Below are positions 44,240 to 60,939 of a stretch of 64,000 nt of DNA, in pieces (within the stretch, counting starts at the first letter, position 1; each line of letters begins with the position of its first letter). The stretch lies in NCBI GenBank assembly GCA_010015585.1, contig ML975151.1; one strand, given 5' to 3'. Both the position numbers and the translations under genes were made by a program. The notes below the pieces were generated by a model. It did no database searches, was not told the origin of the DNA, and worked only from the letters and a program-made list of their open reading frames with translations. Origin of the DNA: Eremomyces bilateralis CBS 781.70. Its lineage: Eukaryota.

Positions 44240-44756
44240 GATGACAGGAAACTCAGCAGGATGCCGTTCAGAAGTGAAATTCAAGTGTCCGGCAATAGAA
44301 TAGTTGAGTGGGGGAAATAATATGACAAGTGCAAGGTGGTCTTCGATCACGAATGTTGATCAGTTGATGATGACGGGTTCGTTCGAGTTGTTGTTGTTGT
44401 GCTGTCAGTAGCGCTTCGAGCTGTCCCTCGGCCCCAGCCGGATTCGATTGGTGGTAGATGAAGGACAGGGGGAACCATAGTAGCGCTCCCCGCCTGCTTA
44501 ACCATCTTGGGGAAATTCGGCGAAGTGTCCCTGGACTGCCCCTGTCTTTGATGCAGCATGCTAGAAGCTTGGAACAAGATTAGGACCGAGATCCAAGAAA
44601 CCGATCGCTAGAGATGTACGGAATATATGGTTTGCAGGACATTTATGTCTGCAACAATATCATGTATGGGTTTTCCCCACAACGTGCACGGCACCACTCC
44701 TTGCACGAATTCCACCATCAATCCTCCCATCTTCAAACTTCATTATCTCCATCAAA

Positions 44757-46629
44757 ATGGAGCCTATTGATCTCGCTCTTCGAGAGGCAGACTCTCAAGA
44801 GAATCCCAATTATGCTGAAATAGCTAGAAACTATGGAATCGACCGGTCCACCTTGTCTCGGCGTCATCGTCGTAAATCTCGATCACGACAGGATTTCAGA
44901 GACCAGAAGGCAATACTCGACAGACATCAGGAAACACACCTTATTTCCTACATCAATGACCTCTGCTACAAAGGCTTTCCACCATCTAGTGCCATGGTGC
45001 GTAATTTCGCGAGCGAAATCGCGAAATCTGAGGTCGGAAAGAATTGGGTGTCCCGATTCATCTCAAGGAACAAAGCACAACTCCACGCGCGATATCTCCA
45101 CACCGTCGACAGGAATCGTACGGCCGCTGATAAAACCAAAGACTTTCAAGAATTCTACGCGCTCCTACGCGAAAAAATCGCGCGATACGAGATCCTTCCG
45201 GAGAATACATACAATATGGATGAGAAGGGCATTCTAATCGGAATGGGAACAAAGATGAGGCGTATTATCTCCAGAAAAGCCTGGGACGCAGGAAAGGTGA
45301 AGGGGGCTACGACAGATGGAAGTCGAGAGTGGATCACGATTCTGGCATGTATCTGTGCAGATACGACATATCTTCCGCCTGCCCTAATATACCAGGCGGT
45401 TTCTGGGAACATACAGGACTCGTGGATACAGGACTTCGATACCTCTAAACATTCGGCCTTCTTTACATCGTCTCAATCAGGTTGGACGAACGAAGAGCTA
45501 GGTTTCCAGTGGCTTAGCACCGTGTTTGAGCCCCAAACGAAGCCAAAGGCGCGTCTAAGATATCGTCTTCTTTTCGTGGATGGGCATGGAAGCCATATTA
45601 ACATGAAATTCCTCGGATTCTGCGACCAGCATCGAATTCTTGTCTGTACTTTTCCTCCGCATACGACACATCGTCTTCAGCCACTTGACGTTAGTCTTTT
45701 CAGTCCCCTCGCGACGTATTACGGCCAGGAACTCGATCGCTTCATCTTCCAGAGTCAAGGACTCTGTTCTATTACGAAAAGAGACTTCTTTCGCTTGTTT
45801 TGGGCCGCCTGGGGTAAAACCATGACGAAGGATAATATTGCGAGTGGATGGGCAAAAACAGGCCTCTTTCCGCTAGATGAGCATGCTGTGTTAGGCTCAC
45901 TTATCTCNNNNNNNNNNNNNNNNNNNNNNNNNNNNNNNNNNNNNNNNNNNNNNNNNNNNNNNNNNNNNNNNNNNNNNNNNNNNNNNNNNNNNNNNNNNNN
46001 NNNNNNNNNNNNNNNNNNNNNNNNNNNNNNNNATAGCTCTCCTCCGAGGCGAAAATCAGGGCCTTAGACATGCCATTATGCACGAAAGGAGGAAGCGTAA
46101 GCGTGGCAGACCCTTATTTGAAGAGCTACGTGCTGAATCGGGTTCCAAATCACAGTTCTACAATCCTAAAAAGATCGAGCGAGCTCGTGAGCTCCAGCGA
46201 GAGAAGGATCAGGGCAAACGCGATGAGAAGGCACGGAAAGCACAGGCAAAACTGAATAAAGCACTTCAGAGGGCAGAGAATGATAGGCTACGAGCGGAAC
46301 AAGTTGCTCAACGGGCACAGGACCGTCAGATTAGGGCGGCAGAAAGAGAGGTAGAGCTTGCTCGACGTAGGGCCATTCGACAGGCTGATCGTGAAGCAAG
46401 ATCGGCACAGGCACAGCTTCTCCAAGAGTTAAAAACACCTCGAAACACCAGAAAACGAGCAAAAGAAGCCTCTCCACAGCAAATTGTACAGCCGCAGGTA
46501 ATCAGCAGCGATGTGGAGGAGCTAGATAGCGATGGAGAGGAATCTGAAGGAATGGAGACTCAGACGCGGCGAGGTCGCATTTCCCGGCCACCACGATATC
46601 TTAAGGACTTCGATTTGGGCCCTAAATAA
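44757..46629 (+). CDS. Pogo/Fot1 DDE transposase, interrupted by an assembly gap
   Basis: N-terminal HTH (IARNYGIDRSTLSRR), CENP-B-type HTH (VGKNWVSRF), catalytic NMDEKG / FVDGHGSH / QPLDVSLF, and a charged coiled-coil tail after the gap. Confidence 0.93.
45908..46032. other. Assembly gap (N run)
   Basis: Run of n characters inside the transposon. Confidence 0.99.
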
Positions 46630-56380: not shown

Positions 56381-58427
56381 TCATAAAGTAAGTTCCATGG
56401 TCATAACTCTTCCAGATATATATCCGAAAGCAACAATACCCCCATACACGGCAATGCAATGTGGCCGATACTCGGGAGGAAGCCAAAGAATCTGCTCTGT
56501 ATGGCTACTCACCCAGTGGTCGTTGACAAAGACAGAAGATGGATGTTGTAGACTGGTCACACCTATACCACCAGAGAGAGGCGATAAAATAGGCAAGGAT
56601 CCACGGTGCGAATACGAGGGCACTATAGTACGTCTGAAGGGGAGCCTGCTCGATAGCTGGCCGATTATAGAGGACGAACCGCTTCGCATCACAGATAAAG
56701 CTTGAAATACCAGGGCAATCACTTAGCTAGCCGAAGTGTCAGCGAATGTATTTGACGTACTAGAGGTATACTGATGGAAGTAAACAGCTCTAAAGACGCG
56801 ATAGCATGAGCTCCTTCCGACATCTTCCCCATCCATCCAAGGGCCTTGAGCCAGTGAAGAAGATGCTCCTGTAAGAATTGATGTACTTGATCATTGTCGC
56901 AAAGTCGAGCACCGCTTTTCTAGAGGTGCTGGATCCAGTAAAGACATGCGTACTGGACTTCAGGAGGAGAACATTGTTCAACTCGGCTTCTCTTGACATT
57001 GGCTACAGCCATGCCGGGGGCATCCACGCAACAGATATCTTGCTTGAGTGATGTTGACATAAGCCGTATACAGCTGTCAGCCAACAGTTGATGGGCCTGC
57101 TTCTCGTCCACCCACAAGTCTTGGTTCTTACACCTATCATTGCTGAGGAGGTAGTCCCGAAACGACGGATGGTGAAGACGAAGAGGCTGCTTTTGGTCTT
57201 TCTTTTGGTCTTTCGGAACGTCCAGGACGGAGTGTAGGTCGTTTAACGTCTGGTCGACGGCCTTTTTCTTAATATCAAAGTAATCTGCTCAGGGATAATG
57301 CAGAAAGCGGCATAAGAAGAATAACGATACTGCCAAGGATTTCTCTCAACATGCAAAATGCCTCTTCTTTCTCCTCGTCCGTGTATTCCGGAGCGACGGA
57401 TTGTTTCAGCACAGTCGTATAGATCTCGTCTAGGTGCTTCTCCGGCGCTCTGGGAGCGCTGCCACTGCTCCGAAGAATCGTATTAAGTCTTCTGGTGGCA
57501 AATCGTTTCCCTTCGTAGATAAATCGGCAGGCGGTTGCGGCCCAAATAAGCAACCCATCTGTAAGCTGGATTAGGTGTCTGATATTGTCTTCGCTTGGCC
57601 AGCAGATATCCAGACAGTGCTCCTCTCTAATAAGCTTGAGATGATGCACGAAGAATATAGAGATGTCGTGATCTACAGTTGAGGGTGATATGCTGTGAAG
57701 TACAAAATCCTGGAGATTCGCATTCGGTACCTGACGGATTCCGTATCGGATGTTGTTGTCACCGTCGCCCTCATCGAGCGCATCAACGATAAGTATGTAC
57801 GAGGACTGGCCGCCGTTTTCACCTAGCTTCAATAGTGGACGTAGGATAAGCTGCTGCCACTGGTCACGGAGGGACTGACTCGCAATGTCGCGGCGCTCTA
57901 TGATGGCATCGCAAATGTGCTGTTGAAGAGAGGGTATGTTGTTCGCCAGCTGCCACGCAATGCTCGTGATGAACTTGCCTGCATGGTTGACATCTTCACC
58001 GTCGCGCGAGAAGAAGAAGCTGGCTCCGAGATGCTGCTTATCGAACCGCTTGCGGGCGACAGTGCGCGCAATTGTCGACTTGCCCGTGCCGGCCAAACCG
58101 TTCAACCAGAAAATACAGCGCTAGTCTCGGCCATCAGCCCAGCTATAGATCTTTTGAAGGAGGTCGACGCGGGTATCGGGAAGGCAGGCCGGGTTGTGTT
58201 GTCGCTGGTATGTATTGAACGGCGCATCCTCTGCGGTAGGGAGGGAGTTGAGCACATTGTTCAAGTCTAGATTGCCAGTCAGCTTCCTGCTGCTTTGAGG
58301 CCATTGCCAGCTAAGCACTCTCACTTTCGCTGCTTCCAAAGTTCACAGATCCGTGGATAGTGCCAGCGACAATCCGCAAATTCTGGTTGGCGATCACACC
58401 GCTAATGAGTTGAGCGCTGCTTGACAT
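56381..58427 (-). pseudogene. NACHT-WD40 NLR (NWD/HET-E-like) relic with short N-terminal amyloid-like motif
   Basis: Exon 1 (58427-58325) and intron (58324-58267) lead to LPTAEDAPFN..CLPDTRVDLL..W; P-loop GLAGTGKST; LGASFFFSR; Walker B ILIVDALDE; LRLHHPSFRDYL; LQEHLLHWL; DAKRFVLYNR..IEQAPLQTY; C-terminal ILWLPPEYRP..GRV. Stops at 58121-58123 and 56920-56922, a frameshift near 57277, and internal deletions. Confidence 0.9.
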
Positions 58428-58926
58428 GAGCTTGGAGTAGAGCTCTAGTGACGCTAAGCTTTGCTAGCTGCTGGCTGTTGCTCTCTTCTGGCGCATACTG
58501 CCGTGTACGTATACGTGCGCATGCGAACACCTGGGAGTAATTCAATGTTATACCTAGATGAGGTTCATCCTCAATTAGCGAATGCATTCGCAAGGCTCGC
58601 CAATCAACATTCCTGCCTTGCCGCTGTCCATTGCTGAAGAGCAGCTGTCGCTGCAAAGTAGAGCGGAGCTAACGCCAAGACCATTCCCAGGTCATCAGAT
58701 CAATAATGCCGTCTGAGACTCTGCATGAGTGCTAGTTTTCTCTCCGAACTTCTGAAGTGGAAGGGTCATGGATTCATGATGCTGGAATAGACGCTTGATT
58801 GTTCAGCCTTATCCCTCTGTGTCGAAGGTCGCGATGGACTTTGATCTTATATCGTTCCAATTAACTCTCGTCCCTTCAAGTCCCTTCAAGTCCCTTCAAG
58901 TTCTCAACTCTGAACTCACGCAAACT

Positions 58927-60939
58927 ATGTCCCTTCTTTCGCGGCTGCTATTTGCGATTTCGCTTTGTACAATCCATCTCTTGTTTGGTCTTGGACTGCG
59001 TATACATTCGTCATTCGATCAAGAATATTCTCCTCAACCCATTTCTCCGCAGATTTATGTTCACAAGGGGCTAGCCAACGCCACTAATTCCACGACACTT
59101 GCAGCAGAGGTCATCCGCGAAGCCCTCAAATGATACTTATGCGATACCTCAATCTCTTCGTAGGCATTATGGGCTTACTCCAGGGACAATTAATGACAAG
59201 CAGTCCCCTCCATTCTCGGTCTACGACGATTACTACAAAAGTCGATTACAACTAATATACTCGACTCGTGGTATATCTGGACCTACCAATGTACAGGTAC
59301 CGCTGGTGTTCATTCCCGAGCCGACGACTCCCTATTGCCTCTCGCAAACCTCTGATATGACAGTAGAAGGGGATACTTGCAACTTGATTGCTTTAACACA
59401 TAACGTTTCCTCGGCCAACCTTTTCATCCAGAACCAGGACGTCATCTACAATTGCAGTGCAATCCCAGCCGGACTGTCCTCGTGTCTTCCTGAGATGTGC
59501 CGGGTCTATGAAATTGGGCCTTCTGACACTTGCACGAGCATCCAGCATGAGCACAACAAGTGGCTTAATAATTTGAAACCGCTCAATTCCTGTATTGACT
59601 TTATCTTGTTACAATGTCCACAACGCCACCATCATATTCGTCAGCATCCTATATCTTACAGAACAGGGAGTAACCGGAGATGGGAGATCGGGAGACGGAA
59701 GTATATATATATCCTAGACCGCGAGATGGTTTCACAATTCAGGCAATGTACCCCCTTAGTGGCGCGACTGTTGCGGATGACATGAATGAGGAGTGCGGTA
59801 GATGGCTCACCTATACTGGTGGGAGGTCGTGTACCAAAATCTGCATGGAGACACACCTGACAATGGAAATTTTCCTTGCGATCAATCCACCCTTGTCAAG
59901 TACAGACTGTACCGGTTCGCTGGTTCAAGGCCTCACCTACTGCATCGGTCCCTCAAACTGGTGGCAAAACCGCCACCCCCTTTCAAGGAACTAACAATCA
60001 CCATCGATGGAGCCTGTAGGAATGGCATCATTTGTCCAGGGGGAGCTTCGGTGGCTGCTGCAGTCGCTCTGGGAACTGCGGCGACACAGATGTACATTGC
60101 GACTGGTACTCATGCGATCCTCGCCATGGAGCATGCAAGGATCGACCGCGTCCAGGTACACTGATTTCCACGGATGGCTCTTGCGCATACACATCGCCGA
60201 TCGAGGCGACGTACAAGGGCTTAGACTTCGGGGATTGCTGCAGTCAGATCACCGGACGTTGCGGATCTTCGGAGGGGTTCTGCGCTCATTCAAACTGTTT
60301 GTTCACCTTCGGGACTGTGAGCGGCCACACATTCTAAATTTTGGCGAGATGTCCGAAGCTGGGACTTGTGGTTTCAACTCTGCGATCGGTGCAGATTGCG
60401 CGGATCGGCTTTTGGGAACTGCTGCAGTGCGGATAGGTAGGGAAAACTGAGGCATATTGTGACGCTTCGACATGTCAACCTACGGCGCCTGCGGACCGAA
60501 TTCTGACAACGACGCGACGTGCCTTGACTCCCGTTTCGGCGACTACTACAGCACAAGCGGATTGCGTGGCTCGTCTGAAGCTCACTGCCAGAGTTCGGCA
60601 CCTGCTACGGCAACGTCTCCCACGATGGGAAATGCGGCGCCAACTCTTACACTCGCAGCACTTGCTTGGACTCGACGTTCGGCGACTGCTGTGGCACGAG
60701 TGGATGGTGCGGGACGGATTCCGCTAATTGCAGCCCGCCAACTTGCGATCCTGATTATGGTGCGTGTGATTCAGGACCCCCAATTTCGACGGATGGGAGT
60801 TGCGGAAGTACCTCTGGTATTTGGCGCAACGTGTCAACGGACCCCGTTCGGGAATTGCTGCTCTCCATATGGGAGGTGTAGGAGTGACAGTATCTATTGT
60901 GATGCTGGCTGCCAGGCCGAGTTCGGTCTGTGTAATTAG
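58927..60939 (+). pseudogene. Secreted LysM plus multiple CBM18 (hevein) chitin-binding protein gene, frameshifted
   Basis: Signal-like N-terminus; LysM-type GDTCNLIA..VSSANL, YEIGPSDTCTSI, FLAINP..CTGSLVQGLTYCIG; repeated (S/T)xDGxC..C..FGxCCS..GxCG....C units spread across all three frames with stops. Confidence 0.85.

Follow-up and report, generated by a model that had tools for sequence, protein, structure and literature searches.

A decayed NLR gene with a short, spliced first exon encoding a putative HRAM2 motif in Eremomyces bilateralis

Structure, splicing and decay of the gene

We analyzed a stretch of 64,000 nt (the window) from contig ML975151.1 of Eremomyces bilateralis CBS 781.70 (GCA_010015585.1). 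The region from 56,381 to 58,427 holds an NLR gene on the minus strand, whose features are listed here in the direction of transcription.

58428..58686, minus: upstream region, common to close paralogs; 58605-58428 is carried on a spliced contig
58325..58427, minus: exon 1, 103 nt, phase 1, coding for a 34-residue N-terminal peptide (from translation, paralogs and the spliced contig)
58356..58418, minus: putative HRAM2-type r0 motif, residues 4-24, SAQLISGVIANQNLRIVAGTI, with Q3, I5, V8, A10, I16, A18 and G19
58335..58355, minus: conserved post-motif tail, HGSVNFG (family form x-V-x-phi-G)
58267..58324, minus: intron 1, 58 nt, GT..AG (from sequence, paralogs and the spliced contig)
56776..58266, minus: exon 2, broken, with a pre-NACHT segment, NACHT domain and helical/winged-helix region (Pfam NPHP3_N, NACHT, HTH_TANC1)
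58121..58123, minus: premature TAG, ahead of Walker A; spliced product of 82 aa
58073..58099, minus: Walker A, GLAGTGKST, 3' of the first stop (from sequence)
57751..57752, minus: junction of an in-frame 90-nt deletion relative to paralog C1b, directly past Walker B
57279, minus: one-base insertion relative to C1b, causing a frameshift; covered by a 614-nt contig with 0 differences
56920..56922, minus: second premature TAG (from sequence)
56727..56775, minus: position of intron 2, 49 nt, with donor AT where C1b has GT (from sequence comparison)
56381..56726, minus: what remains of the last exon; compared with C1b, 619 nt are missing at about 56608, and the WD40 repeats with them; a 176-nt contig crosses the junction with 0 differences

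A preliminary description of this DNA had proposed that a hidden exon precedes the NACHT-encoding frame, and every element of it lies where it was placed. An ATG at 58427 opens a 103-nt exon encoding the peptide MSSSAQLISGVIANQNLRIVAGTIHGSVNFGSSE; it is followed by a GTGAGA donor at 58324, a GCTGAC branch point at 58283-58278 and a CTAG acceptor ending at 58267, and the phase is compatible, the peptide being in frame with the pre-NACHT segment after splicing. When the genome was searched with DNA for related copies, 54 matches were returned. Each of the 13 paralogs examined has retained, at the same place, a phase-1 first exon of 100-133 nt and an intron of 48-59 nt (three of the 13 have a GC donor at intron 1), so that exon 1 is not a product of chance, and the conservation among homologs on which the preliminary description had made its case depend was indeed found. 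Short first exons can hide such motifs from tracks that show only open reading frames, as at this locus.

A search of public runs found none on record as RNA and one flagged "RNA?". In this single run (X1, whose RNA status is only guessed and which may come from the same strain), a 383-nt contig corresponds to 58605-58325 joined to 58266-58165 with 0 differences, skipping exactly 58 nt. The contig is specific to the window copy, because even the best paralog reaches only 83% identity across the 5' part. The junction, for which confirmation in RNA data had been suggested, is thus present in a copy-exact contig from this one "RNA?" run, and exon 1 and its 58-nt GT-AG intron are real.

The frame of the window copy is broken 48 codons into exon 2, at the TAG at 58123-58121. 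With two stops, a frameshift, the 90-nt deletion and loss of the WD40 repeats, it lacks the open frame through NACHT domain and WD40 sensor expected of a functional NWD-type NLR, which is present in paralogs such as C1b and C4a. Assembly error is disfavoured at the frameshift and at the WD40 junction, because copy-specific contigs with 0 differences cover both; the first stop is covered by none of the listed copy-specific contigs from X1. The window copy is a pseudogene, unable to make a receptor. No more than an 82-aa fragment carrying a damaged motif can come from it, and it is most likely non-functional. The earlier proposal of an amyloid-signalling NLR holds for the type of gene but not for a working receptor; it made no mention of the break in exon 2.

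In a tree of the NACHT region from 24 sequences, the window copy falls inside a clade of six members (support 100/100), with a terminal branch of 0.15 versus 0.011-0.031 in its clade sisters. Compared with the majority of six close paralogs, its exon 1 has six non-synonymous and two synonymous differences; six lies within the range of 0-8 non-synonymous differences in the other copies, and there is thus no sign of special constraint on this exon. The transcript also carries several ATGs upstream of the exon 1 start. A conserved regulatory upstream ORF was considered and ruled out, the upstream ATGs being numerous and different between copies.

Two other regions of the window were annotated. 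An open frame at 44565-46067 (plus strand) encodes a pogo/Tc5-type DDE transposase (DDE_1, HTH_Tnp_Tc5), and at 59075-60939 (plus strand), close to the NLR on its upstream side but on the other strand, are frames with weak matches to LysM (E 0.022) and chitin-binding (E 0.0003) domains.

The N-terminal motif and its tail

The motif had been described as HET-s-like, at the N-terminus ahead of a NACHT domain. Its type and its 21-residue register stand, with a single r0 at the extreme N-terminus (residues 4-24) spliced to the NACHT exon, ahead of the NOD. By eye, 3 of 21 positions are shared with HET-s r2. According to the definitions in PMC4518210, HRAMs carry G19 and hydrophobic residues at positions 5, 8, 10, 16 and 18; at position 3, N marks HRAM1, Q HRAM2 and H HRAM3, whereas Q16 or Q18 marks HRAM4 and 5. 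The window r0 follows the general rule (I5, V8, A10, I16, A18, G19), and with Q3, neither Q16 nor Q18, and no QxFG it follows that for HRAM2. Q3 is present in 11 of the 14 other copies as registered, and in two more is shifted by an indel. By eye, 8 of 21 positions agree between the window motif and a published r0 of HRAM2 type, in table row 80; for the family-majority motif and the same r0 the figure is 12 of 21. The r0 of row 34 and the motif of the C19 paralog agree at 14 of 21.

From these features we infer that the motif belongs to HRAM2 rather than to the canonical HET-s type, an assignment made by eye from the published rules, as the supplement has no class column. The label rests on the Q3 rule and on Table 1 of PMC4518210, where Cadophora and A. 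fumigatus have HRAM2 entries only; the table rows from these species are of the same type as an effector of the present genome, that on C25. The motif, earlier suggested to be possibly a variant, would belong to a class described in 2015. HRAM1 is not indicated, since position 3 is Q and not N and PF11558 does not match the exon; no match to PF11558 over the cut-off was found in the genome. A Pfam scan of exon 1 found no family, which says little because the HRAM2 tails of this genome's effectors also match no amyloid family. A local profile built from 14 exons, run on the window and 20 flanking loci, found receptor exons only, the next best match having an E value of 0.89.

Four changes (S9I, S14L, Q15R and V16I) are private to the window copy. 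Of the HET-s hallmarks claimed earlier, the hydrophobic pattern and G19 survive, but the arginine of R-phi-phi-x-G is one of these private changes (Q>R) and occurs in none of the 14 other copies. S14 is kept in 13 of those 14 and in 6/6 effector repeats, and S273 of HET-s (r2 position 14 in the numbering of the 2RNM row) lies inside the amyloid core (PMC5485727). Given the core location of this equivalent serine and the conservation of S14, S14L probably harms the fold.

The tail after the motif was said to be reminiscent of PP/RHIM-like motifs. A broken gene at C24:299925 does contain a PP-like motif whose end it resembles, but the tail is a family-wide feature, and neither GxQxG nor a RHIM core, (I/V)Q(I/V/L)G, occurs in any of 14 exons. 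Of 14 paralog exons, 13 show the form x-V-x-phi-G. A profile search gave 23 hits; with four long multi-stretch proteins set aside, 16 of the other 19 proteins show it too, two of these 19 apparently being copies from the present genome. PF17046 matched only the PP-like relic on C24 (E 0.001) and none of the four r0 exons scanned. In HRAM effectors a Gly/aromatic segment follows r2 (PMC4518210), which would be a simpler counterpart for the r0 tail; the 26-residue NLR40 motif in PMC9815663 may already include the tail. The C24 relic itself (L107:1384-1680, minus strand, equal to G000:C24:299925-300221) is the broken C-terminal half of a HeLo-like gene of the type found on C2 and C15; it ends in the PP-like motif where HRAM2 repeats would stand, which may reflect a motif swap.

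Receptors and effectors elsewhere in the genome

An r0 of this type is present at at least 15 loci, with an adjacent effector at two and none at 13; because the genome searches scored first-look candidates only, all such counts are lower bounds. WD40 repeats are present in paralogs. Ten of the 15 r0-bearing loci are open over the readable NACHT-helical part and five are broken. One paralog, at L047:4398 (plus strand; G000:C15:440397), shows the beginning of the motif partly duplicated, over 10 residues. Another locus, L100:6315-6431 (minus strand; G000:C1:216314-216430), is a broken NLR whose r0 is of another subtype, similar to r0 motifs published beside C25-like effectors. Four close NACHT relatives (L094, L096, L099 and L095, on G000 C5, C4, C34 and C18) have other N-terminal domains, by eye three SIR2-type-like and one HET-like.

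The absence of an effector partner from the window, as noted earlier, held up: there is no match to HeLo, HeLo-like or SesA domains in it or in the next 10 kb, and on this contig PF17111 has its nearest match about 773 kb away. Genome-wide there are five matches to HeLo, 14 to HeLo-like and three to SesA. Of the two fates suggested for the effector, loss or a location elsewhere, the second is the one found, in the form of three HeLo-like genes with double HRAM2 tails.

C2:1043601, minus: HeLo-like effector gene (PF17111), two C-terminal HRAM repeats, about 300 aa
C15:733, plus: HeLo-like effector gene (PF17111), two C-terminal HRAM repeats, about 300 aa
G000:C25:17459-18412, plus: HeLo-like effector gene (PF17111), two C-terminal HRAM repeats, about 300 aa

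Introns in these genes were inferred, with two solutions each for C2 and C15 and 11 for C25, the first GT being used; the C-terminal repeats are independent of the choice. At the N-terminal end all three products are moderately hydrophobic, with a mean hydropathy of 1.4-1.6 over a stretch of 19 aa, and by eye r1 of the C15 and C25 effectors is identical at 19 of 21 positions to published repeats. The C2 and C25 genes lie head-to-head with r0-bearing NLRs at C2:1044017 and C25:16314.

The window r0 scored 33 against r1 of the C25 effector (9/21 identical), the top score among 66,349 six-frame 21-mers from the window, and 25 against its r2, a score reached by two of the 66,349. Against the four repeats of the C2 and C15 effectors it scored 6-19; the clade-majority motif scored 42 against C25 r1. 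On similarity, the C25 gene would be the best candidate for a cognate effector, although we make this choice of partner tentatively. It is weakened by the r0 at C1:216430, which is of the type published beside C25-like effectors and with the C25 repeats reached scores of only 10 and 5, and by a relic of the C2/C15 type upstream of close paralogs. The latter, 50 nt long, derives from HeLo-like coding sequence (84-90% identity), has the orientation of the NLR, and lies upstream of the NLRs of four close paralogs, at about 300-350 nt from the NLR start on G000 C16, C1 (2228755) and C32 and at about 780 on C2 (437982); it is absent before the window copy. This relic suggests that the orphan clade may have arisen from a rearranged linked pair.

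A search of the PDB sequences at E<=10 with the C25 tail gave a sole, weak match, 6EKA (E 0.76), the sequence of which agrees with the HELLF prion domain (bioRxiv 10.1101/2020.07.06.188508).

Searches with C-terminal exons found three further effector relics and no further full gene. A C25-like relic at G000:C15:73428-73691 (minus strand) is frameshifted in r2, and one at C3:977299-977385 (minus strand) is a lone r2 fragment. A frameshifted r0 at G000:C2:1112386-1112506 (minus strand) with a HeLo-like stub at C2:1112800-1112916 (plus strand) forms a third, decayed head-to-head pair. A HeLo match lying some 10 kb away from paralog C1b proved to be a broken HeLo plus kinase-like gene that lacks HRAM repeats. 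No support emerged for treating the effector on C15 and the receptor on C19, each close to the start of its contig, as one split pair, since they share only a 20-nt match.

Proposed mechanism, alternatives and known systems

We consider it very probable that the gene in the window belongs to an expanded HRAM2-NACHT-WD40 NLR family and has decayed, while apparently still being spliced, and that intact members would act via a HeLo-like effector. By analogy with NWD2/HET-S and FNT1/HELLF, we propose that in intact receptors the WD40 repeats would sense a ligand and the NACHT domains would oligomerise. The clustered N-terminal r0 motifs could then stack as a β-solenoid, an amyloid fold that would serve as the template for the C-terminal domain, made of two repeats (r1/r2), of a HeLo-like protein; this would unmask the hydrophobic N-terminal helix of the latter and lead to cell death at the membrane. 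In the orphan clade signalling would have to occur in trans, because no effector is adjacent, and would reach an unlinked putative partner.

Other readings of the family and of its motif can be weighed against this proposal. That the r0 of the orphan clade no longer signals, and is a vestige that duplications have spread since the linked effector was lost, would explain why 13 of 15 r0-receptors have no adjacent effector, why effector relics lie upstream of four paralogs, and why the NACHT region is disrupted in five of the 15 copies and the tail of one copy carries G>R. We regard this as unlikely, because the copies on C16 and C32 and the copy C2a have an identical 21-mer, exon 1 of C32 shows five synonymous changes versus one non-synonymous, the r0-receptors have no other N-terminal domain with which to signal, and the r0-bearing exon also occurs in other genomes. 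A new motif class or an HRAM-PP/RHIM hybrid, in which the tail would be part of a different amyloid fold and the effector a different, non-HeLo one, is less likely still. The conservation of the tail in 13/14 exons and 16/19 proteins, together with its likeness to the PP-like end at C24:299925, speaks for such a hybrid. However, the GxQxG and RHIM cores are missing from all 14 exons, the four r0 exons scanned escape PF17046, positions 3-19 follow HRAM2, r0 motifs of this type adjoin HeLo-like effectors with double HRAMs both here and in the published tables, and the Gly/aromatic segment after r2 offers the tail a simpler counterpart.

The remaining alternative concerns the window copy itself, the truncated transcript of which might be functional, with the 82-aa, sensor-less peptide seeding or blocking HRAM2 effectors or sister receptors through its r0. 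The copy is spliced, copy-specific contigs extend over several of its parts, the first stop lies past the whole motif and tail, and the hydrophobic pattern and G19 are retained. Nevertheless, S14L replaces a serine kept in nearly all other copies and in every effector repeat, the one equivalent to the HET-s core S273; the copy has a long branch and several independent lesions, its count of non-synonymous changes in exon 1 is ordinary, and several ATGs precede exon 1 on the transcript. We therefore give this reading very little credence. It is just as improbable in its fuller form, in which a spliced pseudogene transcript would have been kept so that its free r0 peptide, as a seed or decoy in trans, tuned at least 15 receptors and three unlinked effectors with two sub-specificities within one HRAM class, an AAVG-type for C2/C15 and a V-x-AG-type for C25. 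If true, this would be a pseudogene-derived regulator of amyloid signalling.

The window copy itself is of little weight. The genome could serve well as a natural test set, because with two linked pairs for reference it would permit a direct cross-seeding matrix of three effectors and at least 15 receptors. Such a set bears on the experimental behaviour of HRAM2, for which the papers listed in a literature search showed no experimental study (most subscription papers lie outside its coverage), and on the sharing of one effector by many unlinked NLRs.

The closest known systems are the HRAM2 pairs of NLRs and HeLo-like proteins of Daskalov, Dyrka and Saupe (2015, PMC4518210). As in these, there is a single N-terminal r0 with Q3, hydrophobic residues at 5, 8, 10, 16 and 18, G19 and few charges, and the effector r1/r2 repeats of this genome are nearly identical to published rows (r1 19/21, in two genes). 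The window copy differs in being a pseudogene without an adjacent effector and in carrying S14L; among the effectors tabulated there, 98 of 155 have an adjacent NLR. The HRAM1 system NWD2/HET-S of Podospora anserina has the same r0-NACHT-WD40 architecture as the intact paralogs, the 21-residue register and the arch glycine, but Q stands here for N3, identity to HET-s r2 is only 3/21, and the effector is HeLo-like (PF17111) and not HeLo. FNT1/HELLF of the same species (HRAM5; bioRxiv 10.1101/2020.07.06.188508) likewise has a HeLo-like effector, a double HRAM and Q3, and the C25 tail aligns weakly to 6EKA, whereas the QxFG and QG sub-motifs of HRAM5 are absent here.

Receptor-rich signalling with unlinked partners, where many NLR motifs per effector are found at non-adjacent sites, is described by Wojciechowski et al. 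(2022, PMC9815663) and by Loquet and Saupe (2017, PMC5485727), and the ratio here is at least 15 to 3. In PMC9815663 this wiring mainly concerns the NLR12/HRAM3 variant linked to PNP_UDP (mean 5.7:1) and Basidiomycota, and HRAM2 with HeLo-like effectors is not among the cases described in the available text of either paper. That one effector may serve several NLRs was proposed in PMC5485727, and in PMC9815663 a shared effector is raised as speculation. As far as these sources go, the HRAM2 class has been known since 2015 and many-to-one wiring has already been proposed in print, and the window copy is an ordinary example of a known design.
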